This document shows, piece after piece, positions 22,122 through 36,792 of a stretch of 64,000 nucleotides of DNA. The notes under the pieces are model-generated. The model was not told the DNA's origin. It did no database searches and saw nothing but the letters and a program-made list of their open reading frames with translations. Position numbers and translations under genes: made by a program. The stretch is from an uncultured Planctomycetota bacterium (GTDB lineage: Bacteria > Planctomycetota > Brocadiia > JAADGH01 > CAYPFP01), in assembly GCA_964409935.1 (NCBI GenBank), contig CAYPFP010000003.1:64230-128229 (forward strand), given 5' to 3'. Position 1 is the stretch's first letter; each line of letters starts with the position of its first letter.

Positions 22122-22967
22122 CTACGGATCCATCGCGCACCTGAACCCCAGATCCTCCGCCTTGTAGTCCAACGGCGCCTGCATGTCGAAATGGACCAGG
22201 GCGTTGATCCGGCCGACCGATTTGTAGCTGCCGCCCTTGATGATTACGAGCGTCGCCGCCTCTCCCGCGACGCCGGCGTCCGTCGTGAACTCCCAGACGT
22301 TGCCGGCCATATCCAGGAGGCCGTAGGGGCTGGCGCCCTGGGGGAACGTGCCGACCGTCATGGCGTAGTCGCCGTCCGACTCGCCGGTGTTGCACTTCTT
22401 CGAATCGAAATCCTGCCCCCACGGATAGAGCCGGTAGTCGTCCCCGCGCGCGGCCCGCTCCCACTCGATGACGGTGGGCAGACGGACCCCCGCCCATTCG
22501 CAGTAGGCGCGAGCATCCGCCTGAGTCAGGTTGACGACGGGGCGTTCCGCGCCGCCCGCCGGGTAGTTGCCTCCTGCCCATCCTTCCGGCGCCGCATGCC
22601 CGGCGGCGTCAACGAACTTCTTATACTCCCGGTTCGTGACCTCCTTGGTATCCATGTAAAACGCGGGCACAACGACCTGGCCGAAGACCTTGGCCGTGAG
22701 GGTGGCAAGGTTCCTGGCCGGGGGCAGATTGAGCTGGCCGAGCAGATGCACCATGTCCGACCGTCTTGCCCCGATGTAGACCTTGCCCGCCGGGATGAAC
22801 ACCATCCCCCGGCTCGCCGCCTTCGCTTGCGCCGGAGAAGGCCCGCGCGTCTGCGGTTCCGCGGCCCGCAGTGGGCCGACGAAAAAGGCCAGCGCGCAAC
22901 ACGCAGCGACCGCCAGTGACGCCTTCTGTCTCATGTCTCGATCATCCCGTCCCACGGCCAATAGCAT
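22122..22967 (-). CDS. formylglycine-generating enzyme (FGE/SUMF1) family protein, secreted
   Basis: FGE-sulfatase domain motifs (RGGSYKS-like KGGSYKSVG, MAGNVWEFT); start ATG overlaps upstream stop as TGATG (alternative start M at 22934 before signal peptide ASLAVAACCALAFFVG). Confidence 0.65.
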   Translation of the reverse strand: MLLAVGRDDRDMRQKASLAVAACCALAFFVGPLRAAEPQTRGPSPAQAKAASRGMVFIPAGKVYIGARRSDMVHLLGQLNLPPARNLATLTAKVFGQVVVPAFYMDTKEVTNREYKKFVDAAGHAAPEGWAGGNYPAGGAERPVVNLTQADARAYCEWAGVRLPTVIEWERAARGDDYRLYPWGQDFDSKKCNTGESDGDYAMTVGTFPQGASPYGLLDMAGNVWEFTTDAGVAGEAATLVIIKGGSYKSVGRINALVHFDMQAPLDYKAEDLGFRCAMDP

Positions 22968-23821
22968 CACCGCTGAATAGTTCCGCCTTCGCCACCGCCT
23001 CCCCCGAAGACGGGATTAAGTCCTTCCGCCAAGGGCTCCCAGTTGCAGTCGTACTTCTTGGCGCGGGCGACCTCCCGCGCCTTTCTATACGTGTCGAAAC
23101 CGCTCGGCCGGACCACGAAGAAGATGAATGTATCGGCAGGTTTCTTCTCTCGAAGCATTTTGGCGAACTCGGAGCCTGGCGTGACCATTGACCCCGCGTC
23201 AGTGTACTCCCATACAACATAGATGCCGGCGCCCATCCGGAACGCTGATTTCACAGTCCCCACACGGTCCTTCTCGCAGAGCACGGGCCAGCCCCCCTTT
23301 TTCGTCGCCGTCGCCACGGGGGCGTTGAATTTGATCTCCACCTCCGCTTTCTTGACCGGCTCTATCTGGGCCATCTTGCGCTGGAGGTCCTCGGCCTCGG
23401 AGGTCAGCTCGGCGACCTCGCCCTCTGTCTGGGCCTTGCGCGCCGCCAGGTTCTGCGCCTCGCTTTGAAGTTTGGATACGGCGGCCTTGCCCTCCTCGAA
23501 TTTCCACTGGGCCTCCGCCGCCTTCTTCCTTTCCAGCGCAAGCTGCTGCTCGGCCGTGGCCGCGTCTCTTTCCGTCTGCGCCTGCTCCGCCTGCACTCGC
23601 CCCGTGTGCGCCTGAACCTCCCTGAGGCGGCGCCCAAGCTCCTCGGACTTCGCCTCGATCTCCTTCGTTTCCGCCACTACCCGCTCGCACTCCAGGAGAC
23701 CGCTGTTGTTGAGCAGCACCATCAACAGCACGAACACCAGCGCGCCGATCGTGTTGGCCAGAATGTCAAGGAAGGAGAAGTTGAAGATGCTGACTTCTTT
23801 CCTTCGACCGCCCAAGCTCAT
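22967..23821 (-). CDS. ExbD/TolR-like single-pass membrane protein with ~130-aa coiled coil and novel C-terminal domain
   Basis: N-terminus RKEVSIFNFSFLDILANTIGALVFVLLMVLL resembles ExbD TM signature; long EAQ-rich coiled coil; C-terminal domain FFVVRPSGFDTYRKAREVARAKKYDCNWEPL paralogous to next gene; GGAAGG SD. Confidence 0.5.
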   Translation of the reverse strand: MSLGGRRKEVSIFNFSFLDILANTIGALVFVLLMVLLNNSGLLECERVVAETKEIEAKSEELGRRLREVQAHTGRVQAEQAQTERDAATAEQQLALERKKAAEAQWKFEEGKAAVSKLQSEAQNLAARKAQTEGEVAELTSEAEDLQRKMAQIEPVKKAEVEIKFNAPVATATKKGGWPVLCEKDRVGTVKSAFRMGAGIYVVWEYTDAGSMVTPGSEFAKMLREKKPADTFIFFVVRPSGFDTYRKAREVARAKKYDCNWEPLAEGLNPVFGGGGGEGGTIQR

Positions 23822-23843
23822 ACACGCGCCTTCCGAGCCTCGC

Positions 23844-24638
23844 TCACTTGAAACTGATCTCCCAATCCGCGTTCACCGGCTCCCATCCCATCGTGACCTG
23901 AAGCGCCTTCGCCAGTTCGCGGGCCTTCTCGAAGGCATCGAGGCCGTCCGGGCGAACCAGGAAAACGACATATTCCTTCGTCCGTGAATTCTTGATTCGA
24001 ACCAGCATCTGGCGGAAAGCGGACTCCTGCGTGGCGAGGGACTTCTGCGGCGTCTCTTCCTTGGTCCGCTTGCCGGGGGAACCGTGGTTGATGACGCCGC
24101 TGGCCGCGCACTCGACGACGTTCGGGATCAGCTTTTTCTCCTCGAAATCCATCTTTAATATCTTCCCGCTGGATTCGTCCTTTCCGCGTTGCGACAGTTG
24201 CCCTTTGAGGACTTCTACCCTCCCCGCCGCCTTGTCCTTCTCCTCCTGCTGTTGCGCCTGCTCGGTTTCCAGCTTCTCGATACCGGCACGCGCCTGGGCC
24301 GTCTGTTCCTGCTGCTCCTTGATTTGCGCTTCCGCTCTTTGGGTCTGATCTCGGGCGCTCTGAACCAGCTCGGCGGCGGGGTTTTTCCGCTTCGTGTCGG
24401 CCAGGTTCTTCTCGGCCTGGGCCGCCTCTCCGGAGGCCTTCTCGACGGCGGTCTCCACACTGCTTTTGCGCGCTTTGGCCTCCTCAAACGCCTGTTTCGC
24501 CTGGAGCAGCCCCCGCGTGTCCGCCGTCGTGCACACCACCATGACCACGATGAAGATCAACGCCCCGACGGTGCACGCAAGAATGTCGAGGAAGGAGAAG
24601 CTGAATATCTCTATCTCGCGCGATCGTCGTCCGGCCAT
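23844..24638 (-). CDS. ExbD/TolR-like coiled-coil membrane protein (paralog of 22967..23821)
   Basis: N-terminus SREIEIFSFSFLDILACTVGALIFIVVMVV; coiled coil; C-terminal FLVRPDGLDAFEKARELAKALQVTMGWEPV; GAGGAG SD. Confidence 0.5.
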   Translation of the reverse strand: MAGRRSREIEIFSFSFLDILACTVGALIFIVVMVVCTTADTRGLLQAKQAFEEAKARKSSVETAVEKASGEAAQAEKNLADTKRKNPAAELVQSARDQTQRAEAQIKEQQEQTAQARAGIEKLETEQAQQQEEKDKAAGRVEVLKGQLSQRGKDESSGKILKMDFEEKKLIPNVVECAASGVINHGSPGKRTKEETPQKSLATQESAFRQMLVRIKNSRTKEYVVFLVRPDGLDAFEKARELAKALQVTMGWEPVNADWEISFK

Positions 24639-24710
24639 CTGTGCCGCTCCTCGGCCCGTTTCTCGGGGCCGATCGCTTGTTCATGCCGCGCCCCGCCGGG
24701 GGCGCCGTCC

Positions 24711-25631
24711 TTACGTGGCGGTCTTGTCCAGCTTCTCGGTCAACCGCTTCATGCCTTCCTCCTGAGCCGCGATAATCTTGTCAATCGCCTGGTTCATCCC
24801 GGCGTCGCCCGCCCCCGGCGCCTGCTCAAGCACCTTGTTGAGGAGGTTTTCGATGCAATAGTCCTTGATGTCTGCGAGCAGCCCCTCCTCCTGGCTCTGC
24901 AGGGCCGACATCGCGAACATCATGATCACGCTCATGACGAGGGACACCAGCGTGGTCTCGAAGGCGACGGCCAGGTTACGAGTCACGTCGTTCAGGGCCT
25001 CCTTCAGCTTGGCCATGTCGCCGGCGTGCTGCACCACCTGGTTGAAGTTGCCGATGGCCGCGCTGATCCCCACCACCGTCCCGATAAAGCCCAACACCGG
25101 CACGGCCCAGATGAAGACCTTGACGGTGGTGTAACTGCTGTCCACGCTCTCGGCGTCCAGCGCCGCCTGTTCGCTCAGGATGTCGTCCATCTTGGTCCCC
25201 GCGCCCACGGTCTTTCTCCGCATGAGCGCCCGCCAGATGCGGTTCACCAGCATCAGCGACTTCTGGCGCCCGTCGAGCTTGTTGATCCTTCGGATGATCT
25301 CCTGCGCCTTCTCCGAAGTGATGTACTCGCTGTGCTCGACGGGGAGCAGGCTCAGTCCGAAGGCCGTCCGCTGCTCCCGCACCTTGAATAGTTTCAGGCC
25401 CAGGATGGCCAGCCCCCAGAAGGCCAGGTACATCACCTCATAGGGTATCCACCCCCGCTGGCAGAAGAGGTTGTACATGTAGCCGTCCCATGCCGTCCTG
25501 AACAGAAGCAGCGGGATCAGCACGTAGAAGAGCACCGTGGCCGCCAGCCCCAATCCCGCCGCCAGCAGCAGGTTGACCGACGTTCCCGTGCGTTGGACGG
25601 AAACCTCGTCCTTTTGTTCTTTTGTTTCCAT
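24711..25631 (-). CDS. MotA/TolQ/ExbB-family proton channel protein
   Basis: Three TM helices plus motifs VPVLGFIGTVVGISAAIGNF and AVAFETTLVSLVMSVIMMF typical of ExbB/TolQ; GGAGGAAG SD. Confidence 0.65.
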   Translation of the reverse strand: METKEQKDEVSVQRTGTSVNLLLAAGLGLAATVLFYVLIPLLLFRTAWDGYMYNLFCQRGWIPYEVMYLAFWGLAILGLKLFKVREQRTAFGLSLLPVEHSEYITSEKAQEIIRRINKLDGRQKSLMLVNRIWRALMRRKTVGAGTKMDDILSEQAALDAESVDSSYTTVKVFIWAVPVLGFIGTVVGISAAIGNFNQVVQHAGDMAKLKEALNDVTRNLAVAFETTLVSLVMSVIMMFAMSALQSQEEGLLADIKDYCIENLLNKVLEQAPGAGDAGMNQAIDKIIAAQEEGMKRLTEKLDKTAT

Positions 25632-25667
25632 GATCGTGCTTCCTCCAGACCATCAACATTCGGCGCG

Positions 25668-28600
25668 TCAGTCGGATGAGTAGACCGCCACGTCGTCAAA
25701 GGCAACCTGGATCGGGGCATCGCACACGAAAAAGCCCACCGCCCCCTCCGAGAACGATTTGTCCGTCAGCGTCGCCACCTCGTAGTTGTTGATCATGAAC
25801 TTCATGGCGGGGCCGTAACAGACGACCTCGAGCGTGTTCTCCTGCCGCAGACCTCTGCGGAGATGTTTGGTCGCGGTCTCTTTGACAAGCTCGAACACAA
25901 CGCCGCCCTTCGTGCCGAATATCTTGCACGCCCCGGCTGAAGAGATGAGGAAGTAGTAGGCGCTCAAGGTCTGGCGCGTGGCCCGGAAGCATAGTCCGTA
26001 ATAGCCCGCGCTCGACCCGCTTGTCTGTTGCGCGTCGGCGCGAAAGGCGAAATCCTTGAAGGTCTTGTCGGGATAGAAGGCCCAGTCCTGTCCTCGAACC
26101 ACTTCCACAATATACTTGCCGCTTCGGACTTCTACGCGCAGCAGATCGTCGTTTCGCTGGGTCCAACCGGCGGCGCGCCCGCTGAAATCTTCGCGCAGCG
26201 CGAGCGTTCGCGGCCTGGGGACGGACATCTTCTTGGAGGGCTGCTTCTCCGGGGCTGCCGGCGTCGTCGTCGCTGCCTTGGTGGTCTTCTCCGGCGCGGG
26301 GGTGGCGGGCGCAGGCGGGGCGGGCGCGGGCGGGGTTTCGGCCTTCTTCGGCTCCGGCTTCTCGGCCTCTGGCGGAGGCTGCTTCGCGGCGGGCGGCTTC
26401 AGGCTGTATACCGCCACGGCGTCCACGGCTATCTCCAGCGGCAGCTTGAAGGCCCAGAAGCCGATGTTCCCGCTATCGGAGGAGGCGTCCGAAATCTCCT
26501 TGATGAACACGCCGTTGACGTACAGCCGCAGACGATCGCCCTGACACCGCGCTTCGAGAACGTTGTAGACGTCCGGCCCCGTCTTGACGGCCGCCGACTT
26601 CGTTGTCTCGGCCAGCACCTTGGTCTCTCCGCCGAAGGCCTTGATCACCGCGTAGGTGCCGGCGACGTCCTCGCCTTCGGTGGCGATGAGGAAGCGGTAT
26701 CCTTCGCCCTCGGCATCTCCCCGGAGCAGCAGCCCGAAATAGGCCGCCTTCATGTCGCTCACGCACCGCACGCGCGCCAGCATCACGAAATCGTCGAACT
26801 CCTTCTGCGCCAGACCGCAATAGCCGGGCATCCGCTGCAGGATGTGGTACTCGCCTTCCTGGATCATGGCCTTCATCTCTTCGGTGTCCTGCAGGGGCCA
26901 CTCCGTCTTTCCCGAATCGAAGGTTTCGTCCAGCAGGGCCTCGCCGATCACCGCCCGGCTCTCGCCGGACATGCACTCGATCAGGGGAGGCTGCTTGCTC
27001 TGGGAGGGCTTGCTTTCCGCCCGCTCCCTGTCCGGCCTGGCGGCGGCCCTCGGGGGCGGCGCTTTCGGCGACGGTGGGGCTTTCTGCGTGGCTTCGCCGC
27101 GCGCCAGCGCGACCATGGTTTGCGCCTTGCGGACGTCGTCTTCTCCGGATGTCCAGCTCAACGCCTCCGTGTAAGCGGCCGCCGCCTTATCGAACTGCGC
27201 CTCTTTGCGGTATTCGTCCCCTGTGGATAGGAAATGCGAGTACGCCGTCTCGCTCAGGGAGGCCGCCCCTTCGCGCGCCAGGTGCACCAGGTCGTTCTCC
27301 CCGAATTCGGGCGCGACTTGCGCCGCCAGGTTGTAGAGGTTTCTGGCCTCCGCGAACTGCGCATGGGCAACCATCCGCCCGGCGTCCAGAATCCGGTTTC
27401 GCGTGAGTTTCTCGTATTGGGATATCTTCGCGACCCACTGGTCGGCGGTCTCGGCTTGTTTGGCGTCGCTGCGCGCCAGGGCGGCCATCGCGACCGCCTC
27501 TTGCAGCCGTCCCTGAGTCGCGAGTTTCTTGACCTCCGCCACGAGGTCGGCCGGCGCCGGCGCGGCCCCTTCGGTTCCCGTCTTTGGCTTTCCATGTCCC
27601 CGCGCTACGAAAAAGGCGGCAGCCGCCAGCGCCGCCACGACGACGACGGCGGCCACGGCAATGGGCATGATGCGCGCGGCGGGCTTCTCGACCTTGCGCG
27701 GGTAACGTTTCTGGAGGACGTCGGCGATGATCTGCCCGACGGCTTCATCCGCGAGGCCCGTGGACCTGGCCTGGATGCGCCAATCGGCGATCCGCGCCTC
27801 GCTCGGCCGCCCCGCCGCCAGGATAGCCTCTCCCATCTTCCGCACCAGGTCCGCCTTGATCTCTCTCAAGCGCCGGTCGTAATACGCCCTCTCTTGGCGG
27901 TCGCTCAGTTGCGACTGCGCGCGCCGCACCTCCGCGACCAGTTGAGCCGCAATCGGGCCGTGCTCGGGCGAGTCCGTAAAACGCTGCAGTCTTACCAGTT
28001 GCGCCTGCGCGGCAGACCTGACCTGCTCGCTCGATGCGCTGAATTCGGGCAGGTTCAGCAACTGGTAGAAATTGGGCGGGCGGTCGGCCGACACGACCCC
28101 GATCCAGTCCCGGTACACGTCGCGTAGCAACGGTCTTTCCACCGCCGGACTTGCCGCCCGCTGCGCCGGTTTGCCTTGCAGCCGGTCCAGGACGACCTGG
28201 AGTCTTGCCGCCACGTCCCTGGCGCTGGAGAAGCGACGTTCCGGCGACTTGTGCAGCATCCGCTCCAGTATCTCCACCACGTCGTCGGGCGTCGAGGGGG
28301 CGAAGTTCCGTATGGGCATGGGATGTTTTTCGACGTGCGCGCGCATGATCTCCAGCGCGTTGCGGCCCGTCACCGGCAGGCGTCCCGCCAGCATCTCGTA
28401 GTACATCACCCCCAGCGCGTAGATGTCCGAACTCGGCGTTACCACGCGCCCTTCGCACTGTTCCGGCGACATGTACAACGGCGTGCCCAGCGGCTCGCCC
28501 GTCATTGTGACCTTGCGCCCTTCCGGAAAGTCCGAAAGGTTCTTCGACAGGCCGAAATCAGCCACCTTCACCGTCCCGTCCTTCGCCAACAGCACGTTCG

Positions 28601-29018
28601 ACGGCTTGATGTCCCGATGCACGATCCTCTTCTCGTGCGCGAAGGCCAGCGCCAGCGCTATGTCGCGCACGATCCGCGTGGCCTCCGTCAACGGCATTCG
28701 TCCGCGCTTCTCCAGCGCTTCGGCCAGCGACGCACCCTCCACGAGCTGCATCTCGACGAAGGCGATCCCCTGATCTTCTCCGGCCCGGTAGACGGTGACG
28801 ATATTGGGGTGATCCAGTTGGGCGGCGTTCTGCGCCTCCCGCAGGAACCGCTCGGAGAACGTCGGGTGCAGTTCGACCAGTTGTTCGGGCAGCACCTTGA
28901 CGGCCACGGCCCGCTTCAAACGGACATTCATGGCCCGGTACACGACGCCCATCGCGCCCCGCCCCAGCAATGCTTCGATGAAACAGTCGCCTAGCTGTTT
29001 GCCGACCAGATCGCCCAC
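25668..29018 (-). CDS. Ser/Thr protein kinase with J-domain-like module, TM helix, TPR-like region and two C-terminal DUF1080/LamG-like domains
   Basis: GTG start with GAGAGGG SD; kinase motifs GRGAMGVVY, HRDIKPSNVLL, DFGLSK, GTPLYMSPEQ; TM IMPIAVAAVVVVAALAAAAFFVA; repeated C-terminal jellyroll ending ...VDAVAVYS / ...DDVAVYS. Confidence 0.8.
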   Translation of the reverse strand: MGDLVGKQLGDCFIEALLGRGAMGVVYRAMNVRLKRAVAVKVLPEQLVELHPTFSERFLREAQNAAQLDHPNIVTVYRAGEDQGIAFVEMQLVEGASLAEALEKRGRMPLTEATRIVRDIALALAFAHEKRIVHRDIKPSNVLLAKDGTVKVADFGLSKNLSDFPEGRKVTMTGEPLGTPLYMSPEQCEGRVVTPSSDIYALGVMYYEMLAGRLPVTGRNALEIMRAHVEKHPMPIRNFAPSTPDDVVEILERMLHKSPERRFSSARDVAARLQVVLDRLQGKPAQRAASPAVERPLLRDVYRDWIGVVSADRPPNFYQLLNLPEFSASSEQVRSAAQAQLVRLQRFTDSPEHGPIAAQLVAEVRRAQSQLSDRQERAYYDRRLREIKADLVRKMGEAILAAGRPSEARIADWRIQARSTGLADEAVGQIIADVLQKRYPRKVEKPAARIMPIAVAAVVVVAALAAAAFFVARGHGKPKTGTEGAAPAPADLVAEVKKLATQGRLQEAVAMAALARSDAKQAETADQWVAKISQYEKLTRNRILDAGRMVAHAQFAEARNLYNLAAQVAPEFGENDLVHLAREGAASLSETAYSHFLSTGDEYRKEAQFDKAAAAYTEALSWTSGEDDVRKAQTMVALARGEATQKAPPSPKAPPPRAAARPDRERAESKPSQSKQPPLIECMSGESRAVIGEALLDETFDSGKTEWPLQDTEEMKAMIQEGEYHILQRMPGYCGLAQKEFDDFVMLARVRCVSDMKAAYFGLLLRGDAEGEGYRFLIATEGEDVAGTYAVIKAFGGETKVLAETTKSAAVKTGPDVYNVLEARCQGDRLRLYVNGVFIKEISDASSDSGNIGFWAFKLPLEIAVDAVAVYSLKPPAAKQPPPEAEKPEPKKAETPPAPAPPAPATPAPEKTTKAATTTPAAPEKQPSKKMSVPRPRTLALREDFSGRAAGWTQRNDDLLRVEVRSGKYIVEVVRGQDWAFYPDKTFKDFAFRADAQQTSGSSAGYYGLCFRATRQTLSAYYFLISSAGACKIFGTKGGVVFELVKETATKHLRRGLRQENTLEVVCYGPAMKFMINNYEVATLTDKSFSEGAVGFFVCDAPIQVAFDDVAVYSSD

Positions 29019-29156: not shown

Positions 29157-30518
29157 CTACGGCTTCACCGAATACACCACAAAATCGTCGAATGCCGCCT
29201 TCGTGCCCTTGCCTTGGACCAGCGTCCCCACACGCCCCTTCAGGAAGTTGGCGTCGGTTACGGTCGCGGCATGGATGAAAGTCCCATCTATGAAAAACCG
29301 AAGCGAGTCGCCTTTGCACAGGGCCTCAAGAACGTATTCCTTGCCCCGTGCACTGGCTTTTCCCGCCTTTGGGGCCTCGGCAAGCGTGGCTGTCGGCCCT
29401 TCCTTGCCCCAAAGTCGCACCTGCCCGCCCTTCTCGGTAATCACCAGTTGGTAGCCCCTCCACTCATAGCCTTTCACTCCGGAAGGCACCCTCAGCAACA
29501 TCCCGCATGACCGGGGCTTGCCGTCCGGATGCTCCAAACACGTCGTTCTGACCGAAACGACAAAGTCCTCGAAATTTCCCCAGGCGTCCCCAGGGAATCC
29601 CCCGATACACTCCACTATAAACCGTCCGCCCGCGATGGATCGTATGCCATGGTGTGTCCGGCGAATCTCTCCGTCGGCCATATGATTCCACCGCTCGACG
29701 TGCAAGGGAACACCCATCGCCTCCCGCAACTCCCGCGCCACAGGCTGGGGCAACGTGGATTTGTATGGCGGCAGGGCGTCCTTCTTCACGGAGAACACGA
29801 TCAAGTCGTCAAAGCGCGCCGTGAAGCTTTCCTTTCCAGCCGCCACACACGCAAATCGCCCCCGCACTGGTAGATCGGTCTGCACTTCCGCCGTTGCCGC
29901 GTCGCTGGTACGACGCGCCGCGTCGCTGGTACGACGCGCCGCGCCGTTGAGCCACCCCTTGACCCGGTCCCCCACGCATCTCCCTTCGACGATGTTCCTC
30001 TCCTCCATCCCGAATTTCATCAGGGCCGGCGAAAGCCTCTCATACACTCGATGCAGTCGCCGGTCCCCTCCGTGCAATTCCACCATCCTCCCAAAGCGAA
30101 GCGCCAGTTCAAGAGCGGCGTTTCCGTCCTCCCGGAACTTGACGGCGGCGGTCGCCGTGGGGTCCCCGGCGCCCGAAACGGCGACCTGGAAGATGAAGTC
30201 GTCGAACCACCGTTCGAGACGAGCCAGGGTGTAGGACCTCTCCCTCTCGTCCACCAGGAAATACGCGCCGTCCCGGATGAGGCAAGACGCAGGCCCCGTG
30301 GGAATGATGGGCCAGCCGTGCACGCCCCCCGGGGGGGCGTTATCATCGAATGGTTCGTACAGCAGCAGCTTGTCCGCCAGCTTCTGGTTTTCCGGCTGGA
30401 GACGCCGTCGCAGTTCCTCAACCTTCGGTCCGACCGCCGCCTGCGGCAACTCTCTCTCCTGCGCGACCGCCGGTCCGACCGCCGGTCCCTGCCCCCCCCG
30501 CAAGGCCAAGCCTCTCAT
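29157..30518 (-). CDS. protein with two DUF1080/LamG-like domains; start uncertain, probably C-terminal part of a frameshifted larger gene; carries tandem REP-A (ARRTSDAARRTSDA)
   Basis: Tool ORF 29157..30674 has junk N-terminus overlapping upstream ORF; first plausible ATG M53; domains end AFDDFVVYSVKP like kinase C-terminus; C8 homopolymer in overlap. Confidence 0.45.
   Translation of the reverse strand: MRGLALRGGQGPAVGPAVAQERELPQAAVGPKVEELRRRLQPENQKLADKLLLYEPFDDNAPPGGVHGWPIIPTGPASCLIRDGAYFLVDERERSYTLARLERWFDDFIFQVAVSGAGDPTATAAVKFREDGNAALELALRFGRMVELHGGDRRLHRVYERLSPALMKFGMEERNIVEGRCVGDRVKGWLNGAARRTSDAARRTSDAATAEVQTDLPVRGRFACVAAGKESFTARFDDLIVFSVKKDALPPYKSTLPQPVARELREAMGVPLHVERWNHMADGEIRRTHHGIRSIAGGRFIVECIGGFPGDAWGNFEDFVVSVRTTCLEHPDGKPRSCGMLLRVPSGVKGYEWRGYQLVITEKGGQVRLWGKEGPTATLAEAPKAGKASARGKEYVLEALCKGDSLRFFIDGTFIHAATVTDANFLKGRVGTLVQGKGTKAAFDDFVVYSVKP
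29889..29930. repeat. REP-A, 2 exact tandem copies, in-frame in DUF1080 gene
   Basis: Encodes ARRTSDAARRTSDA, same peptide as at 2966. Confidence 0.85.
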
Positions 30519-31647
30519 GTATGAGCGGCACGTTGAGCAGCAGAATCCTGAACTCGCCCCCTGCCCCGCTCCCCACATAGTAGACCAGCCTAGTCCCGTC
30601 AGGCGACCACGCATGATGGCCGCGCACCCCGCTGCCTTCCATCGTGAGCTGACGCTTCGCCGTCCCGGCCTCATCCATCAGCCAGATATTGTTCATGTGA
30701 TAGAACGAGATTATCCGTCCGTCCGGCGACCATGCCGGACACGCGCCCACATTGGCCTTCATGAGAACGGCGCAATCTCCGTCAATGCGCTGCACCTGGA
30801 TGCCTGAAGACTCCTGCGCCCAATACGCGACAACGGCCTCCCTGGGCGAAGCCGCCGGACAGGTTTCCGACCCGTTGGTATGAGTCAACTGCCTTGCATT
30901 CCTGCCGTCCAGATCCGCAACCCACAGGTCCCAACGCCCGCCCTTCCGACTCATATAGCAGATGCGCCCCCCGTCGCTCGTAAACGTCGGCCAAACGGCT
31001 GAATCGGGCACGCACGAGGACAGTTGACGCGTTTCAAGGTCCAATATCCGAATGGCCATGTCGTGCGACCATATGGCCGCCTTGTCGCCAAGGGGGGACA
31101 CGGCCGGCTTGCGCGCCCGCGGAGAATGCCACGGCGCAATGGCCTTCGTGGCCACGCTAAGAACCAGCGCCGTGTCCCCGTGGTACTCGGCTGCGCCGGG
31201 TCGCGGCTCAAGCTCCACCAGAATGCTATTCCCATCGCGAAACCAGGCAAGCCGCCCCACAAGCGTGTTAGGCGGGCAGGCCATGGGTATGCGCGTCAGC
31301 AAGCTGGCAAAGTCCATCTGGCCTGGCGGGGGCAGCGCCGTATCAGGAACCGGCGCAGGCGGAGGCGGGGCTTCCGGCGCAGGCGGCGGCGGGGCCGCTT
31401 CCGGCGCGGGCGGCGCCCGGACCAGCATCATCGTGCGCGCAATCGAAAGCTCCAGCAGCATCTCCACCGCCTGCTTCTGGTAGGCCCCGATCTGGTACTG
31501 CTTTACGATGCGCATCCGCTCTTTCGCCGCCCGCTCGATGACGTCGGGGTCCCCCTCGTCCTTCGCGATGCCCAGCAATTGATGCCCCGCCGGCGGCCTC
31601 GACGGCGCCTCAACCCCAAGCCATTCCCTGTAGAAATCCCTGCCCAT
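30418..31647 (-). CDS. J-domain-like N-terminal module + Pro-rich linker + PD40/TolB-like beta-propeller; last ~30 codons look like out-of-frame read-through
   Basis: MGRDFYREWLGVEAPSRPPAGHQLLGIAKDEGDPDVIERAAKERMRIVKQYQIGAYQKQAVEMLLELS; repeats WSPDGRIISFY, WSPDGTRLVYY; tail LGLAGGAGTGGRTGGRAGERVAAGGGRTEG; overlaps next ORF by >=100 nt. Confidence 0.5.
   Translation of the reverse strand: MGRDFYREWLGVEAPSRPPAGHQLLGIAKDEGDPDVIERAAKERMRIVKQYQIGAYQKQAVEMLLELSIARTMMLVRAPPAPEAAPPPPAPEAPPPPAPVPDTALPPPGQMDFASLLTRIPMACPPNTLVGRLAWFRDGNSILVELEPRPGAAEYHGDTALVLSVATKAIAPWHSPRARKPAVSPLGDKAAIWSHDMAIRILDLETRQLSSCVPDSAVWPTFTSDGGRICYMSRKGGRWDLWVADLDGRNARQLTHTNGSETCPAASPREAVVAYWAQESSGIQVQRIDGDCAVLMKANVGACPAWSPDGRIISFYHMNNIWLMDEAGTAKRQLTMEGSGVRGHHAWSPDGTRLVYYVGSGAGGEFRILLLNVPLIHERLGLAGGAGTGGRTGGRAGERVAAGGGRTEG
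31413..31545. repeat. ~133-nt near-identical segment (92-nt perfect core) shared with 34607..34739; encodes the J-like module
   Basis: Manual alignment of the two gene 5' regions. Confidence 0.8.
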
Positions 31648-31662
31648 GCTTCGCGCGACCCC

Positions 31663-33723
31663 CTATTGTTTCGCCGCAAAGACGGCGATCTCCATGAACA
31701 TTGCAGCCACATTCGTTCCCGGAGGAGCCAGCAACCTAAGCCCGATCTTCTGCCTGGACGGACTGGACACCTTGCCCCTCCAGAGAAGGTCTCCGTCCTG
31801 CCAGACCTCAACATTCTCACCGATTGCGCAAATCTGAGCCTTTCTAAACCCGGAGACCCACCCCATGCCCTTGAAGGTTAGAGTACCGGTATTCAGCTTT
31901 CTCTCAGTGAAGCTCGATTTCTGGTCTCCCAGGCGAATGTCTACATCGTGGTCGTTGCTCCCGGCGAACATCCATCGCACCACAATGTCCGCATCCGCCT
32001 GGGGAACAGGTGCTGCCAAACGAACCGCAAAAGCCAAGATGAAGTCCGTGCATTCGCCTGTAAAGTTCGCTTCGAGGGTGCTCTGTCCCGTGGAGCGTGA
32101 GCGGAGGATGACAGGTGAAGAGGTGGAAGTTCCCGGCGCAGTACTGCCCCCTTCCACCTTCCACATCCCCGAGCCGCTGCCTGCCATAAGCCCGTCATAG
32201 GCTATGAGGTCGCCCGCTCGGCGCAGGTTCTCAGCGGAAAGCAGGCGCCGCGCACGCCCCAATTGGCCCGCCTGCAATGTCGGGCTGGGCGTCGTCCCGG
32301 CAGGCGCGCCGGTTCCTGTTCGTGTCGCCGACGCCGGCGGGGGGCCAAACGGTAGTTTGAAGGCCGTCCCCAGCGCGATGGAGCGAACCTCGTGGCTCGA
32401 GTCCGTCGCGCCGATTCGCTGCAACTTCTCTCTGGCCGCCTCTTGCCGGAAGCCGGCCAGGGCATGGCATATCGCCGCCCTGACCTCCGGCAGCAGCTCT
32501 GTGTCCACGCAGGTGAGCAGCGCATCCATCGCCGCCTGTGTACCGTGTTCGCCCAGCGACAGGGCGGCCCGCGCTCGAACGCGCCATTCCTTGTCCGACT
32601 TCATGGACTTCGCCAACGCCGCCGTTGCGGCGCGGGCCTCGTGTTCCCGCAGGAAGGCCGCGGCCAGGTATCGTTTCACATCGGACACGTTCGATTCGAG
32701 GATCGAGCACAAGGCCGAAGGGTCCCCCTGCGCGTGCTCCATCCCATACCGTCCCGCCGCCCAGATCCGCACCTTGTCAAAGCCGGCCTCCATCTTCTCC
32801 GGCGCCGGTTCCCGATCCAGGAACAAGACGCAAACGCCAAGACGCCGCACAAACATCTTCTTGTCGGAGCCGGTCGCGCCGAACGGCGAGACCAAGAGGC
32901 AACGCCGGTCGGTCTCTTCCAGCGCCGCTTTCCTTCCCTCCCAGTATGTGCGGAATGCCTGTAACGCCTCGCTGCGTGGCGTTGTCATCGAGACAGGAAA
33001 TTGCAGGTTCCGGGCCACCTGCCAGCACATGCATGGCAAGCCCTTCTCCGGACCTTGCGATCCGCTTCGAGGGGGACGCGAGGTCGCGTAGCCAAGCAGG
33101 ACATCAACAGCCTCCACCCTCGCCACACCCTCGAGTGCGCGCTCCGCCCAATATGACCACACACCCCTTGCGGGATTCGTGGCGTCAAGCGACACGACGA
33201 GAATCTCAAACGACGGCTCGTCCCCCAGGGCCGCAAGCGCCCCAAGTTCCACTGCCGCGAGGTACGAGCGGACCCAGTGTTCTTCCTTGCGCAGGCTTTC
33301 GATCAACGCCTTCGCCGCCTCGCTCATCGCGGGGTAGGAGGTCTTGAACGTGACCGGAGGTATGGGGATGAACTCGCCGGGGAATTCCACGGCGGACATG
33401 GGGGGGAGCGTGGTGGGCGCCGCCGGCGCGGGCACAGTCGCCGGAACCGGCGCAGGCGGGGCCGCATCGGGAACCGGACCGGGCGGAGGAGGAGGCGGCG
33501 CTTCCGGCGCGGGCGTCGCCAGGGCGACCACCTTCCTGTGGAGTTCCTCCAGCAGTTCCCTGCCTGACGCCAGACACGCGCAGTCTTTGTAACGCTCGTC
33601 TACCGTCAACTGTCTCAGGGCCACGATGGCGCCGCTCAAGTCCGTCTGCGCCTGCCGGCGGCAGGCCTCGATCTTCTGCGCCCCCTCCGCCTCCAGAGCG
33701 TATCGCTCCCGCTCCTTGCGCAA
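31663..33723 (-). CDS. HEAT-repeat + C-terminal DUF1080/LamG-like domain protein; TTG start as called by ORF tool, more likely the C-terminal part of a frameshifted giant gene
   Basis: Start codon is TTG at the printed sequence; frame stays open a further 84 nt upstream; HEAT/PBS-lyase-like repeats (LPEVRAAICHALAGF, SHEVRSIALGTAF); jellyroll ending IGLRLLAPPGTNVAAMFMEIAVFA. Confidence 0.45.
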   Translation of the reverse strand: MRKERERYALEAEGAQKIEACRRQAQTDLSGAIVALRQLTVDERYKDCACLASGRELLEELHRKVVALATPAPEAPPPPPPGPVPDAAPPAPVPATVPAPAAPTTLPPMSAVEFPGEFIPIPPVTFKTSYPAMSEAAKALIESLRKEEHWVRSYLAAVELGALAALGDEPSFEILVVSLDATNPARGVWSYWAERALEGVARVEAVDVLLGYATSRPPRSGSQGPEKGLPCMCWQVARNLQFPVSMTTPRSEALQAFRTYWEGRKAALEETDRRCLLVSPFGATGSDKKMFVRRLGVCVLFLDREPAPEKMEAGFDKVRIWAAGRYGMEHAQGDPSALCSILESNVSDVKRYLAAAFLREHEARAATAALAKSMKSDKEWRVRARAALSLGEHGTQAAMDALLTCVDTELLPEVRAAICHALAGFRQEAAREKLQRIGATDSSHEVRSIALGTAFKLPFGPPPASATRTGTGAPAGTTPSPTLQAGQLGRARRLLSAENLRRAGDLIAYDGLMAGSGSGMWKVEGGSTAPGTSTSSPVILRSRSTGQSTLEANFTGECTDFILAFAVRLAAPVPQADADIVVRWMFAGSNDHDVDIRLGDQKSSFTERKLNTGTLTFKGMGWVSGFRKAQICAIGENVEVWQDGDLLWRGKVSSPSRQKIGLRLLAPPGTNVAAMFMEIAVFAAKQ

Positions 33724-35032
33724 TCGGGCCTCCCACCCCCCGACCCGCAGGTTTTGCGGGAATTCGTCCCACGCGCTCGGCGACGAACTCGCCGATACGC
33801 TGGCCGGTCATTGGAAAACCCATGGCGCGCAACTCCTCTACCCGCGCACAAGCCGGTGGACGCGCGCGGCCGGTCGCCAGCTCGTCGGCCCTTTTCTTCG
33901 TCTCCTCCAGTCGAGTCAACGCGGCGGCCTGCACCTCCACCTCGACGATCTTCCTCTTCCTCTGCGCCTCCTTCCCATACTTCGACTCCGGCGCGCAATC
34001 CAGCACGGCCTGGTAACGCCTCACTATCTCCGCGTACTCGCCCGGATTCCTGGAATGGTATTGCGCCGCCTCGGCGTGGAGGTCTTTCGCCTCGGCCAGC
34101 CGCTCGTATTCCCTCCTTGCGCGCGCCCCTCGCAAACCTGCCGCCGTCAGCGCCGGCAGTTCCGACAACTCCTCGGCGGCATCCCTGTATTGCTCGCGTT
34201 CGGCCAGCCGCTGCGCCCGGTCCAGCGCCGGCCAGACCTCCTGTTCCCGCCACCACTGCCCGAAACCCGCCGTCACCATCGTCATCAGGACGACGCCCGC
34301 TGCCACGATCGCCATGTCCCGGCGGCGGCGGTGCCCGCGTTTCCACACGGCGTTGTCCACGATCTTGCGCGCCAGTTCCCCATCAATGCCCATCCGCGCC
34401 GCATGAGCCAGCAGCCGTTCCGTCAAGGCCGACCGCACCCCGCCCTGCATCAGCAGGAAGTCGCAGATCTCGCCGAAGGCCGCGGCCGCCGCGCCTCTGC
34501 CCGCCGTTTCGGGCCTCGTCTCCGGCGCCGCCTCCATCATGACGATCTCTTCGGCTTGGACCGGCGCCGCCCGGGCCGCCCGCGCCGCCGCCTCCCGCGC
34601 CCGGACCAGCATCATCGTGCGCGCAATCGAAAGCTCCAGCAGCATCTCCACCGCCTGCTTCTGGTAGGCCCCGATCTGGTACTGCTTCACGATGCGCATC
34701 CGATCCTTCGTCGCCCGCTCGATGACGGCGACATCTGTTTCCTCCGGACGCACGCCGAGCAGTTCCTCATGCGAAGGGGGCCTCTTGCCGGGCGGGATTC
34801 CCAGCCACTGCGTGTAGAAATCTTCTTGTTGGGGCGCGCGAGGCTTAGGGGCTTCCGGTTTGGGGACCGTGTGGAGCGGCGAGGGGACGGTGAGATTCGC
34901 CGCGCAGCGCGGACACCGCGTTGTCCGGCCAACCACCTCTCTTATGGCCGTAAGCACATGCCCGCACCGAGGACACTTGAACTGGAACGTGTCGTTCATG
35001 GATGTCCGCCTGTCTCCAGGACAACGCGGCAC
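33206..35032 (-). CDS. Zn-ribbon + J-domain-like module + TM helix + TPR/coiled-coil protein; 3' ~170-215 codons are out-of-frame low-complexity read-through over the next gene
   Basis: FKCPRCGHVLTAIREVVGRTTRCPRCAANL zinc ribbon; J-like module identical over ~30 aa to 30418..31647 gene; TM MAIVAAGVVLMTMVTAGFGQWW; tail GRGVGGPIAQGAGAIRSGGGGG... is compositional junk; 517-nt out-of-frame overlap with next ORF. Confidence 0.45.
   Translation of the reverse strand: MPRCPGDRRTSMNDTFQFKCPRCGHVLTAIREVVGRTTRCPRCAANLTVPSPLHTVPKPEAPKPRAPQQEDFYTQWLGIPPGKRPPSHEELLGVRPEETDVAVIERATKDRMRIVKQYQIGAYQKQAVEMLLELSIARTMMLVRAREAAARAARAAPVQAEEIVMMEAAPETRPETAGRGAAAAAFGEICDFLLMQGGVRSALTERLLAHAARMGIDGELARKIVDNAVWKRGHRRRRDMAIVAAGVVLMTMVTAGFGQWWREQEVWPALDRAQRLAEREQYRDAAEELSELPALTAAGLRGARARREYERLAEAKDLHAEAAQYHSRNPGEYAEIVRRYQAVLDCAPESKYGKEAQRKRKIVEVEVQAAALTRLEETKKRADELATGRARPPACARVEELRAMGFPMTGQRIGEFVAERVGRIPAKPAGRGVGGPIAQGAGAIRSGGGGGAEDRGLPPAGADGLERRHRGPETVDGRRALQRLRVSGVRQGTAGGTPQEGGRPGDARAGSAASSSARSGSRCGPACAGSGDCARAGGAHHAPPHVRRGIPRRVHPHTSGHVQDLLPRDERGGEGVDRKPAQGRTLGPLVPRGSGTWGACGPGGRAVV
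34607..34739. repeat. partner of 31413..31545 duplicated segment
   Basis: Manual alignment. Confidence 0.8.
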
Positions 35033-35208
35033 GCACGTACAGTGATTGTATTATATTACGGGATTTGCACAGGCACAAGCGGACGTTTTCTTGAGGTGTG
35101 CGGCGGCAGATGTCCCCGTTCACGTAGTGCCAGGCACGCGCCAAGCGTCTGGCGCGAGCCAGGCACTATGTATGCGGCTGCCCCCCACGGATGCGGTCCC
35201 CAGACCGG

Positions 35209-36702
35209 CTATTCGAGAATAATCGTCGCTACAGCCTCCTGGGCCTCTTCGACCTCCCGTTCCGAAAGCCCGCTTTCGCGCACGATTTCGGTGGAGGCTA
35301 CCTTCCCCGTGGACAGCTCCCTGGCGCCGACGGCGAACCGGCCGTCCGCCGTATACTCATATGTGACCTCCACCAGCGCCCCCTTGGGCAGCCCGACCGA
35401 GAAGTCCGAAATGACGCATTCGCCTATCTTTATGCAGGCGCTGGGGTCGGGGGCCTCTCCTTCCAGAATGCCGATGCGTATCTCGCGCTCGCCCTCCCGT
35501 ATCGTGCGAAACATCTTGGTCACCGAACACGGCAGCGGCGAGTTCTTGCGAATCATGACGAGGTTCTTGTCGCGGTCTTTCTCGCGAACGATGATCCCCA
35601 AGCTGTGGGAGTTGACGTTGGTGACCTTCTTCTGGAACATGCCCCGGAGAATGGCCCCATGGATGGCCGCGCCATGCGCAACGATCTCGTCTACCGGCAG
35701 CGAGTTCACCGGCTCTTTCTTCGTCAGTTCGCGCAGCATCTGCGCCACCATGGGCATTCGGGTCGAGCCGCCCACCAGCAGCACCTTGTCCACGTCCTTC
35801 CACGTCAGGCTGGCGTCATCGAGCACCATCTCCGTCGAGAGCTTGGTGTGTCCGAGCAGGTGGGCCGTGATGCGCTCGAAAATCTCGCGGGTGACGTCCA
35901 CCGAGATGCGGTGACCGGCGTGCGAGCACGGGATGCGCACACGCGACCGCGTGCTCAGCGTCTTCTTGGCCTCCTCGACCTCGTTGTATAGCGCCTGGAA
36001 GGACTGCGCGTCGTCGCGGGGATCGGCTCCGCACTGGCGCAGGAAGGCGTCGGCGACGTAGTTGGCCAGGGCCATGTCCCAGTCCTTGCCTCCCAGCCTC
36101 ACATCGCCGCCCGTGGCCAGCATCCGGATGCTGTCCGGCTCGATGCGGATCAACGTGACGTCGAAGGTGCCTCCGCCCAGGTCGTAAACGAGCGCCGTCT
36201 GCGGCTCGTCGCCCTTGATCCCCATCCCGTACGCCAGCGCCGCCGCCGTAGGCTCGTTGATGATGTCTACCACATTCAAGCCGGCGATTCGCCCCGCGTC
36301 CTGGGTGGCCTTGCGGCGCGTGTCGTCGAAAAAGGCCGGCACCGTAATCACCACGTCCTGAAACGGGCCGACTTGCGCCTCGGCGTCTTGTTTCAGTTTC
36401 ATCAGGATGAACGCCGATAGCGTCTCGGGCGAGTACTCCTTGCCCCGGAACTGGAATCGGAAACTCGGATTCCCCATCTCGCGCTTGATGCACTGAACCA
36501 CGCGGTCCGGATCAACCAGGGCAACGCGTTTGGCCTCCCGCCCCACCACGATGGCCTCGTCCTCGAACAGAATCACCGACGGCGTCGCAAAGTCGCCCTC
36601 CCGGTTGCGGATCGTGACCGGCTTGCCGTACACGTCCACGTAGGCGATCTCCGAGAACGTCGTGCCGAGGTCTATGCCCAGAACCGTCCCGTTTGGCGGC
36701 AT
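35209..36702 (-). CDS. Hsp70-family ATPase (non-canonical, 497 aa: full NBD + truncated substrate-binding domain)
   Basis: GIDLGTTFSEIAY, DLGGGTFDVTLI, VLLVGGSTRMPMV Hsp70 phosphate/adenosine motifs; AAGGAGG SD; first gene after promoter. Confidence 0.75.
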   Translation of the reverse strand: MPPNGTVLGIDLGTTFSEIAYVDVYGKPVTIRNREGDFATPSVILFEDEAIVVGREAKRVALVDPDRVVQCIKREMGNPSFRFQFRGKEYSPETLSAFILMKLKQDAEAQVGPFQDVVITVPAFFDDTRRKATQDAGRIAGLNVVDIINEPTAAALAYGMGIKGDEPQTALVYDLGGGTFDVTLIRIEPDSIRMLATGGDVRLGGKDWDMALANYVADAFLRQCGADPRDDAQSFQALYNEVEEAKKTLSTRSRVRIPCSHAGHRISVDVTREIFERITAHLLGHTKLSTEMVLDDASLTWKDVDKVLLVGGSTRMPMVAQMLRELTKKEPVNSLPVDEIVAHGAAIHGAILRGMFQKKVTNVNSHSLGIIVREKDRDKNLVMIRKNSPLPCSVTKMFRTIREGEREIRIGILEGEAPDPSACIKIGECVISDFSVGLPKGALVEVTYEYTADGRFAVGARELSTGKVASTEIVRESGLSEREVEEAQEAVATIILE

Positions 36703-36762
36703 CGAACGACCCCTCCTTTACACCTCCCGTACATGCGCCGGATACCGGACTTGCTGGCCTTC

Positions 36763-36792
36763 ATTTAACTTTAATCCGGAGGGCGTGTCAAG
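36763..36792 (-). promoter_or_regulatory. near-consensus sigma70-type promoter TTGACA-N18-TTAAAT (minus strand) upstream of Hsp70-like gene, preceded by A-tract
   Basis: Minus-strand read GAAAAAACTTGACAcgccctccggattaaagTTAAAT; about 50 nt upstream of Hsp70 start. Confidence 0.45.

Follow-up and report, generated by a model that had tools for sequence, protein, structure and literature searches.

The window analysed here, the whole 64-kb stretch at positions 64,230 to 128,229 of contig CAYPFP010000003.1 from an uncultured Planctomycetota bacterium, carries on its minus strand (36702-22122) a gene cluster that combines an Hsp70 chaperone with a membrane motor. The cluster encodes a lidless Hsp70, three proteins with a J-like domain that lacks the HPD tripeptide, one of them a receptor Ser/Thr kinase, a MotA/TolQ/ExbB-family membrane protein with two TolR/ExbD-like subunits, and an FGE-fold protein. 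The odds are roughly even (a probability of about 0.5) that these genes form one functionally linked accessory envelope system, assembled from two recurrent modules. What is shown is which domains the proteins have, that Hsp70s and J-like proteins covary, that the motor partners have a TolR fold and that the gene combination recurs in other loci. A search for the combination of Hsp70, J-like, MotA and FGE proteins found nothing equivalent described in the searched literature. This agrees with an earlier note on this DNA, made from the letters alone, which had not recognised a described system.

Domains of the window proteins were assigned with Pfam, with NCBIfam equivalog cut-offs and with PADLOC. 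The contigs and loci compared with the window cluster are labelled L001 to L148. No cluster protein reached the cut-off of any NCBIfam named equivalog.

A lidless Hsp70 lineage

The first gene of the cluster (35209-36702, minus strand) encodes an Hsp70 paralogue of 497 amino acids. It matches Pfam HSP70 (PF00012) with an E-value of 1e-122 over profile positions 1-512 of 599. Alignment with DnaK and HscC of E. coli, taken from the annotated K-12 record, showed that the ATP-binding motifs GIDLGTT, K70, NEPTAAA and DLGGGTFD are kept. The nucleotide-binding domain (NBD) motifs and the beta-sandwich of the substrate-binding domain (SBD-beta) place the protein in the Hsp70 superfamily. It ends with a short helix shortly past the sandwich; the helical lid is absent. 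The short Hsp70-family ATPase that the earlier note had put at the head of the cluster is thus borne out. The region of the DnaK VLLLD linker, VLLLDVTPLSLG, is changed to KKVTNVNSHSLG in the window protein, and the equivalent of DnaK Arg-167 (R167) is an aspartate. In DnaK, established genetics has R167 contact the aspartate of the J-domain HPD tripeptide. Orthology to DnaK and HscA was rejected on scores of 406 versus 648 bits and 332 versus 708 bits, respectively, and on the missing lid, R167 and VLLLD. HscC was rejected likewise, with only 32% identity to the E. coli protein and lid, R167 and VLLLD all absent.

The lineage was scored on the 120 best homologues, which come mostly from Planctomycetota metagenome-assembled genomes and are 47-56% identical. 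The R167 position could be scored in 113 of them; 112 have an aspartate there and 104 have VNSHSLG. Two lidless Hsp70 paralogues stand in tandem in several metagenome contigs, at L090:7878-11533, at L109:8390-11518 and in L089, and both copies in L090 are of the D167/NVNSHSLG type. The tandem genes suggest a further diversification of the lineage.

A large J-domain family without HPD

The partner of this Hsp70 is a module of about 80 amino acids. A hidden Markov model (HMM) run on the six-frame translation found three matches only, all on the minus strand; the earlier count of four copies is too high. Copy 1 (34580-34828, 2e-40) lies in J-like protein 1 and has the loop KQYQIGAY in place of KYHPD. 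Copy 2 (31393-31641, 7e-39) lies in J-like protein 2 with the loop QYQIGAY. Copy 3 (27855-28124, 2e-35) lies within the kinase, keeps the helix IV motif ERAYYDRRL and has the loop RFTDSPEHG. Copies 1 and 2 share about 135 nt of near-identical DNA (34597-34730 versus 31413-31546, roughly 130 of 135 positions), pointing to a duplication or a gene conversion that took place recently within the cluster.

A profile of the three copies was searched against 1.84 billion cluster representatives (50%-identity clusters). With the threshold at E ≤ 1e-3 the family comprises 8367 proteins, and at E ≤ 1e-10 it still comprises 3156. Many have two to five tandem copies of the module, in varied architectures. 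The family consensus is FDPYxxWLGIPxxxQPPxHYxLLGxxxFExDxxVIxxAAxRQxxxVRxYQxGxHxxxAxxLLxExxxARxxLLxxxxKxxYDxxL. Searched against the PDB, a profile of 40 modules retrieved solved J domains at the top, with CbpA at 4.7e-5, DnaJ at 6.4e-5 and about 50 more J-domain chains. In this alignment, the family segment 'kyqsg.eh' falls on 'KYHPD'. J domains, and not a well-known unrelated domain, head the list. From the PDB, the profile of the three window copies retrieved designed helical repeats only. Homology to J domains is also seen in Pfam, where 23 of the 40 modules match PF00226 (DnaJ) singly, the best at 8e-6; the window copies alone have no Pfam match. Several family modules also match the NCBIfam DnaJ or CbpA models. 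An AlphaFold (AF2) model of copy 2 has four helices (pLDDT 89). Structure comparison with Foldseek placed J domains on top (probability 0.9, TM-score about 0.6), at an E-value of about 0.7 that is not significant for a helical domain of this small size; helix number and ranking agree with a J fold, statistical significance does not follow.

The HPD tripeptide between helices II and III is needed for stimulation of the Hsp70 ATPase. It is absent from all of the 209 module domains that were counted in 150 representative proteins. The loop reads (Y/F)-Q-x-G-x-H instead, and 181 of the 209 domains have a glycine in it. The shared module is a true J domain without HPD. On this census and on the J-domain matches of the 40-module profile (E = 5e-5), the HPD-less J-like module proposed earlier holds. 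The largest published survey of J proteins dropped HPD-less and multi-J-domain sequences (PMC10410713), and this filter may explain the absence of the family from that survey.

The J-like proteins and the Hsp70 lineage covary. Strong J-like matches (E < 1e-10) adjoin only Hsp70s without R167: the residue is an aspartate in the window, L001, L002 and L091-L093, and a glutamine in L142. In L132, a J-like protein lies beside an Hsp70 fragment that stops short of position 167. DnaKs with R167 and VLLLD adjoin an HPD-bearing DnaJ in 20 of 23 cases. The covariation suggests a rewired contact between Hsp70 and J-like domain. The module may instead be no more than a homotypic adaptor of the 'effector-associated domain' type; this is less favoured, because loci with only one J-like protein also have the module next to this special Hsp70 lineage. 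The J-like proteins encoded beside the nearest Hsp70 relatives of the window protein, at L001:11552-13564 and L002:11552-13573, carry besides the domain a transmembrane (TM) helix, repeats of the TPR-like kind and an extended series of DnaJ-type CxxCxGxG zinc fingers. The predicted topology would put this zinc-finger module on the periplasmic side.

The motor protein and two TolR-like subunits

The MotA/TolQ/ExbB-family membrane protein (24711-25631, minus strand, 306 amino acids) matches Pfam MotA_ExbB (PF01618) over the cut-off with 1e-10, which agrees with the MotA/ExbB-type channel of the earlier note. The motifs P-x-L-G-F-x-G-T-V-x-G and A-F-(D/E)-T-T-L are located in the last two TM helices. 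P178, G181, G184, T185, G188, F224, T226 and T227 are invariant in the family alignment. The Pfam match and the polar TM residues assign the protein to the MotA/TolQ/ExbB channels; with 20 versus 221 bits it is not the TolQ equivalog.

Two genes follow directly 3' on the minus strand and encode the coiled-coil (CC) proteins CC1 (23844-24638, 264 amino acids, TM motif FSFLDILAC) and CC2 (22967-23821, 284 amino acids, TM motif FSFLDILAN). Pfam gave coiled-coil noise only for both. They share a basic N-terminus, a TM helix F(S/N)FSFLDILA with an aspartate, about 120 helix-prone charged residues and a C-terminal domain of about 100 residues that ends with ...FxVRPxG(x)D(x)(F/Y)xKARExA...WEP. The homologues P0390-P0393 have the same TM motif. 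The aspartate in the N-terminal TM helix and the gene position directly behind MotA are those of ExbD, TolR and MotB. An AlphaFold model of the C-terminal domain (pLDDT 86, pTM 0.79) has the order beta-beta-beta-alpha-beta-alpha-beta and agrees by fold comparison with the periplasmic alpha/beta fold of TolR and ExbD. The ExbD family model (PF02472) found no match in the window CC proteins, and coil-deleted constructs matched it in 1 of 23 cases (E = 0.005). A coil-deleted profile retrieved nothing from the PDB, and the full-length profile was swamped by coiled-coil proteins. With hhalign, the probability was 62% for TolR and 6% for ExbD, with hand-typed template sequences. Their TM motif, predicted fold and MotA_ExbB neighbour lead us to accept CC1 and CC2 as TolR/ExbD-like. 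Of the two coiled-coil ExbD-like proteins in the earlier note, the TM aspartate and the TolR-like fold stand, and the match to the Pfam ExbD family does not. By analogy, a 5:2 stoichiometry and a heterodimeric coiled coil would be expected.

Recurrence of the two modules

A MotA alignment was scanned against one genome per GTDB species. It gave 576 confirmed relatives, and the best 80 loci were inspected. They belong to Planctomycetota, Verrucomicrobiota, Lentisphaerota and a few Myxococcota. In nearly all of these 80 loci, the MotA gene is followed by two homologues of the CC proteins (e.g., L004:10001-13511). This canonical trio is usually stand-alone. Its partner 1 (about 270 amino acids) has the motif LFPFLSIL with a serine in 66 of 74 sequences; partner 2 (about 371 amino acids) has LDSLLDT with an aspartate in 52 of 52. 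The canonical trio would have the proton-binding aspartate on only one subunit of the presumed dimer. The window trio is a rarer subtype with FSFLDIL in both partners. The trio is an independent, widely conserved module of the Planctomycetes-Verrucomicrobia-Chlamydiae (PVC) group that joins the Hsp70 module in a minority subtype only. In Verrucomicrobiota/Opitutales (L006:11091-12077, L032, L037 and L044), the C-terminal domain of partner 1 has an insert of about 60 residues, YRIWRSxxGTxMDARFVxR(D/E)GxxIxLKxxxGxxIK..., which resembles a small beta domain. A similar insert is present in L003.

The closest relatives of the window MotA are those of L003 and L142/L143, with 45% and 43% identity. 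They come from separate samples. L003 encodes, in this order, a kinase-TM-FGE fusion, an Hsp70 of 518 amino acids, MotA after a gap of 22 nt and two CC proteins. In L142/L143, an Hsp70 of 522 amino acids is followed after 1 nt by MotA, the two CC proteins and a protein of 1172 amino acids. In the latter, an N-terminal J-like domain (2.5e-15) and a Zn ribbon are combined with a TM helix and a pair of FGE domains. The order Hsp70-MotA-CC-CC and FGE, kinase or J-like parts recur in these two distantly related contigs, against the earlier note's refuting case of a gene order conserved in no related genome. The same families in varied fusions and orders are the strongest argument for a joint function.

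Five independent trios of the FSFLDIL type were examined. Each lies beside an Hsp70 or beside GAP1-N2, and none is stand-alone. The trios in L146/147 (L146:2810-11751) and L148:7807-18108 adjoin GAP1-N2/GAP1-M genes (PF20013/PF20014). In L145:3207-10861, a related MotA_ExbB gene also lies beside GAP1-N2/GAP1-M genes. There, the MotA-like gene comes after that of a protein with a GYF domain and TM segments, a candidate for the component that Kaur et al. 2020 describe as 'GYF fused to a TM-rich region'. In L146, a TM protein with multiple Zn ribbons is encoded directly upstream of MotA.

L068 was rejected as a fourth Hsp70-trio locus: its Hsp70 is a canonical DnaK with R167 and lies 2 kb away. 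A metagenome scan with the Hsp70 added no motor-linked case; most of the loci it returned were DnaK-DnaJ pairs of the ordinary kind.

Receptor-like proteins and the FGE-fold protein

J-like protein 1 (31663-34999, minus strand) is read as two open reading frames (ORFs), 35032-33206 with 608 amino acids (Zn_ribbon_8, 9e-5) and 33723-31663 with 686 amino acids (HEAT_2, 2e-17). It consists of a Zn ribbon, the J-like domain, a TM helix, TPR-like helices and HEAT repeats, and its C-terminus is a probable jellyroll. J-like protein 2 (29157-31647, minus strand) is split at a run of eight G into the ORFs 31647-30418 (409 amino acids; PD40, 2e-16) and 30674-29157 (505 amino acids; 3keto-disac_hyd, DUF1080, 2e-4). 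The J-like domain is followed by a proline-rich linker, a PD40 beta-propeller and two DUF1080-like jellyrolls. Its sequence has no TM segment or signal peptide, and the protein appears to be cytoplasmic. The third member is the receptor Ser/Thr kinase (25668-29018, minus strand, 1116 amino acids). The kinase domain (Pkinase, PF00069, 1e-52) is of the Hanks type, with VAVK, HRDIKPSN and DFG intact. It is followed by the J-like domain (amino acids 303-390), a TM helix, a helical region and two DUF1080 jellyrolls, seen as two stretches of 3keto-disac_hyd (9e-12). The modular architecture described in the earlier note is confirmed by Pfam for Zn ribbon, HEAT, PD40 and DUF1080. The periplasmic location it gave to the jellyrolls does not extend to all of them, because J-like protein 2 is without TM segment or signal peptide.

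The last gene encodes an FGE-fold protein (22122-22970, minus strand, 282 amino acids; FGE-sulfatase, PF03781, 3.8e-40). The likelier start is at 22934. It has a signal peptide, MRQKASLAVAACCALAFFVGPLRA, and a lipobox candidate, VAAC; it is predicted to be secreted and is possibly a lipoprotein. The C-terminal segment reads GGSYKSVGRINA...LGFRC. In human FGE, the catalytic cysteine pair C336/C341 is located shortly ahead of the C-terminal LGFRC. The window protein has IIKGGSYKSVGRINALVHFDMQAPLDYKAEDLGFRC, without a cysteine ahead of LGFRC, and hence appears to lack the pair of this reference motif. The NCBIfam models for GldK, EgtB and SenA all scored far under their cut-offs on the FGE-fold protein. 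Membership in the type IX secretion system (T9SS) as GldK/PorK and in Tol-Pal as TolB was rejected on the equivalog scores (71.6 versus 350 for GldK and 62 versus 343 for TolB). On the DUF1080 and FGE folds only, the cluster may sense periplasmic glycans.

Gene arrangement, frameshifts and flanking genes

The G+C content is about 64% along the whole window. The cluster is read as ten long co-oriented ORFs. Two pairs of them, those of J-like proteins 1 and 2, overlap in different reading frames (517 nt and 256 nt), and the signal of G+C at third codon positions (GC3) changes the frame within both overlaps at G-runs. The coding-strand sequence of the second junction is CTTGCGGGGGGGGCAGGG; removal of one G joins the PD40 ORF with the DUF1080 ORF. 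This tract, C8 on the plus strand and G8 in the coding sense (30492-30499), is the sole homopolymer of eight or more in the 64-kb window. The first junction requires a +1/-1 shift from the frame-1 stop near 33800 to about 33740, by short G runs. The remaining long genes of the window are intact, and therefore two localised single-base indels are indicated. Most simply, the split pairs are two long genes broken by single-base indels, and the cluster after frameshift repair has, most simply, eight genes. From the eleven co-oriented genes of the earlier note, the co-orientation remains and the number drops to ten ORFs in about eight genes. The indels may be homopolymer sequencing errors, a real pseudogenisation or a slippage-prone (phase-variable) tract.

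A promoter-like TTGACA-N17-TTAAAT (36763-36791, minus strand), read from the sequence, precedes the cluster; its spacer had been given as 18 nt. An AGGAGG is located at 36717-36712, 9-10 nt ahead of the ATG of the Hsp70. The -10 hexamer TTAAAT fails the consensus rule of the promoter scan. Promoter-like matches across the region show no excess over shuffled sequence, and because they equal the shuffle expectation, this weak candidate promoter is not counted as evidence for the cluster. A weak terminator-like hairpin with a T-rich tail (22043-22060, minus strand) lies 62 nt past the last gene. Terminator-like matches are not enriched over shuffles either.

The genes on either side are unrelated to the cluster. 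Convergent with its end, a nitrosative/oxidative stress-type group is encoded on the plus strand (18138-22029). The group codes for an Rrf2 regulator, an NIR_SIR/Fer4 Fe-S protein, a flavodiiron-type protein (ODP/lactamase_B and flavodoxin) and a hybrid-cluster protein (Prismane, 5e-142). Genes upstream of the cluster encode a PCC-domain protein and an ABC transporter. Many polysaccharide-degrading functions, typical of planctomycete glycan-degrading genomes, are located at 433-15170 and 40823-47069. They include glycoside hydrolase (GH) family GH116, GH67-like/DUF4838, pectate-lyase-like, BNR sialidase-like, beta-helix, GH14/42-like and rhamnosidase-like proteins.

Comparison with known systems

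HscC of E. coli with DjlB and DjlC is a similar arrangement: a non-housekeeping Hsp70 is encoded next to dedicated membrane-anchored J partners. HscC and the window Hsp70 also both lack the NBD segment of DnaK residues ~76-101, and neither is expected to need GrpE. The differences are large. HscC keeps R167 and the lid, whereas the window Hsp70 has no lid, an aspartate at the R167 position and a rewritten linker, at 32% identity. DjlB and DjlC keep the HPD/HPE triad; the window J family has the loop (Y/F)QxGxH. HscC has no associated MotA-type motor, unlike the window Hsp70.

Pam16/Tim16 and DNAJB13 share with the window module a J fold without HPD at a membrane with an Hsp70 system. Pam16 works paired with the HPD-bearing J protein Pam18. 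In contrast, the window cluster has no HPD-bearing J protein, and the HPD-contacting residue is gone from its Hsp70. The window J family further differs from Pam16 and DNAJB13 in an extra N-terminal extension, FDPYxxWLGIPxxxQPP, and in its frequent tandem copies.

TolQ/TolR-type motors resemble module components of the window in the MotA_ExbB subunit with threonine and acidic TM residues, in the partner with TM aspartate and TolR fold, and in two different TolR-like genes after the A gene. The window motor differs by an insert of about 120 residues in both partners, the lack of a TolA/TonB-like or vWA transducer, the unmatched Pfam ExbD model and the genetic coupling to Hsp70, J-like receptors and kinase. 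Zorya (ZorAB) also uses a motor of the MotAB family, there repurposed as an envelope sensor that signals to the cytoplasm. The window cluster has no long ZorA tail, no peptidoglycan-binding domain of ZorB and no ZorC/D/E effectors. Its long extension is periplasmic and belongs to the B-type subunits.

The GAP1-N2 GTPase-centric systems are predicted conflict systems that act in proximity to the membrane (Kaur, Burroughs, Iyer, Aravind 2020, PMC7159879). Hsp70 together with DnaJ-fused proteins, kinase-Zn ribbon proteins and, in planctomycetes, FGS (FGE-fold) effectors are among the accessory themes of these systems (PMC7159879). The main text of that study does not mention MotA/ExbB, and its J domains are called simply DnaJ (PMC7159879). 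The window cluster shares the Hsp70/J, kinase, Zn ribbon and FGE themes and the membrane-proximal action. It differs in having no GAP1 (PF20013/PF20014) or TRAFAC GTPase in the cluster or in 20 flanking proteins.

Proposed mechanism and alternative explanations

From these parts, we infer a physical coupling, a stoichiometry, a signal and an output. Module A would be a dedicated pair of a lidless Hsp70, ATPase-competent by its motifs, and proteins with divergent J domains. Two of the three J-like proteins are predicted to be bitopic in the inner membrane. Their J-like domain would be in the cytoplasm together with the Zn ribbon or the kinase, and the periplasm would house their lectin-like and repeat domains (DUF1080 jellyrolls, HEAT). 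The J-like domains would recruit Hsp70 to the receptor tails by a rewired, non-HPD interface; the presumably soluble PD40/DUF1080 protein bears the same domain. Module B would be a proton motor of the MotA/TolQ/ExbB 5:2 type, with threonine and acidic TM residues and a TM aspartate in both inner subunits. A pentamer of the MotA-like protein around two aspartate-bearing TolR-like subunits would couple proton flow to the movement of a periplasmic stalk. As a heterodimer, this stalk could extend ~17 nm into the periplasm (120 residues x 0.15 nm). The secreted, non-catalytic FGE-fold protein would complete the periplasmic part. The periplasmic DUF1080, HEAT and FGE-fold domains may bind envelope or foreign ligands, and motor-stalk and lectin-like domains may together probe the envelope state or a ligand. 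Hsp70 could set a threshold for assembly or activity of receptors and motor, and the output would be Ser/Thr phosphorylation by the kinase.

A role of the module in envelope surveillance or immunity is slightly favoured over housekeeping, because sister trios have GAP1-N2 neighbourhoods. Two further-reaching readings are tentative and, in our view, somewhat doubtful: a new Hsp70-coupled 5:2 trans-envelope machine that acts through J-like-tagged receptor tails in surveillance or immunity and, independently of it, an HPD/R167-independent docking or activation of Hsp70 across thousands of planctomycete proteins.

Several observations weigh against one linked system and against its tilt to surveillance. 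With the L001-type, whose locus contains a single J-like partner without a motor, the window Hsp70 shares 58% identity. Its identity to the Hsp70s of L003 and L142 is only 45-47%; between themselves these two reach 57%, and at the R167 position they have Ala or Gln instead of the window's Asp. Because the window Hsp70 is closer to the motor-free type, the array may have arisen by joining an Hsp70/J-like pair with a trio/kinase/FGE module and not from one ancestral operon. The searches gave no more than three independent instances of Hsp70 with the trio, and the combination occurs in none of the 80 GTDB species loci. The 10.6-kb contig of L003 has no J-like domain; therefore, the J-like tag is not obligatory for the link between Hsp70 and motor. 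The operon status follows from strand and spacing only, and the intergenic gaps of ~210 nt between Hsp70 and J-like protein 1 and of 138 nt ahead of the kinase could house internal promoters. In the available sequence, the genes of J-like proteins 1 and 2 each have a frameshift, and they might be pseudogenes. PADLOC and the window's own context lend the surveillance or conflict view no support: PADLOC matched no defence system, only a generic kinase and weakly ZorA, and 20 flanking proteins include no GAP1, GTPase or defence gene.

One alternative is that the Hsp70/J-like pair and the receptor kinases lie by chance, or in loose adjacency, beside an independent Tol/Exb-like motor and an FGE protein to which they are not coupled. 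The closest Hsp70 homologues (56-58% identity) are followed by one J-like protein and then by unrelated genes, the trio is stand-alone in nearly all of the best 80 PVC loci, and the window Hsp70 is not the nearest kin of the trio-linked Hsp70s. The J-like family is huge and has many architectures; many copies per planctomycete genome are likely, and adjacency becomes likelier. Chance is nevertheless an unlikely explanation for an Hsp70 immediately upstream of MotA (22 and 1 nt) in the two closest trio relatives from separate samples. It also has to account for FGE domains fused to kinase or J-like domain in L003 and L142/L143, the same families as in the window, and for five of five FSFLDIL trios beside Hsp70 or GAP1-N2.

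The neighbourhoods of the related trios, which adjoin GAP1-N2/GAP1-M genes, lead to a different explanation, a Zorya-like anti-phage or 'conflict' system. The motor would sense phage-induced envelope perturbation, the kinase would be the effector and Hsp70 would set the threshold. The shared themes of Hsp70/DnaJ, kinase-Zn ribbon and FGS, with FGS effectors in planctomycetes (PMC7159879), fit such a system, as do the patchy distribution and an FGE domain without the catalytic cysteine pair, suited to binding. PADLOC also matched the kinase domain to the PD-T4-6 and MAD6 kinase models; the PD-T4-6 matches, however, reflect the generic Hanks kinase fold. PADLOC found no system, its ZorA matches are confined to the TM region and weak (E = 9e-6), and the long ZorA tail is absent. 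A ZorB-type OmpA domain and a ZorC/D-like nuclease or helicase are missing from the cluster, the window is without GAP1, GTPase or neighbouring defence genes, and the conflict role of GAP1-N2 is itself a computational prediction only. This explanation is improbable. Very unlikely is a housekeeping envelope machine such as Tol-Pal or the T9SS/gliding machinery GldKLMN, with Hsp70 merely as an assembly chaperone. A motor, a long periplasmic dimer and an FGE-fold protein do parallel the known machines, the best NCBIfam match of the FGE protein is GldK/PorK, its VAAC may be a lipobox and the PD40 protein resembles TolB repeats. Furthermore, the canonical trio is near-universal in PVC genomes, and the literature has tolQ-like genes with paired tolR-like genes in PVC bacteria as putative force transducers. 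Yet the scores of 71.6 for GldK, 20 for TolQ and 62 for TolB are far under the equivalog cut-offs, the PD40 protein has no export signal and the window trio is a rare, accessory subtype unlike the canonical trio. In L003 and L142, the FGE domains are tied to the inner membrane as parts of proteins that have a kinase or J-like domain on the cytoplasmic side, which suits a sensor and not an outer-membrane ring. The linked accessory system of two modules remains the preferred reading.

Implications

Each part of the cluster comes from a known superfamily, and there is a real chance of a new machine type. Three features appear to be undescribed in the searched literature. These are a very large HPD-less J family paired with an Hsp70 lineage that has lost R167, linker and lid; TolR-like subunits with long coiled-coil inserts; and the recurrent coupling of this Hsp70 lineage to a MotA/TolQ motor and FGE/kinase/J-like receptors. 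The contact of HPD with R167 and the linker is regarded as the universal switch of Hsp70s. The HPD-less J family and the Hsp70s without R167 would be a natural experiment on alternative targeting and activation of Hsp70. If true, the coupling of Hsp70 with a MotA/TolQ motor would give 5:2 motors one more role, after flagella, Ton, Tol, gliding/T9SS and Zorya. The cluster ties the predicted GAP1-N2 'conflict' systems to a membrane motor. The proposed heterodimeric TolR-like stalks of about 120 residues suggest a way across the wide planctomycete periplasm.

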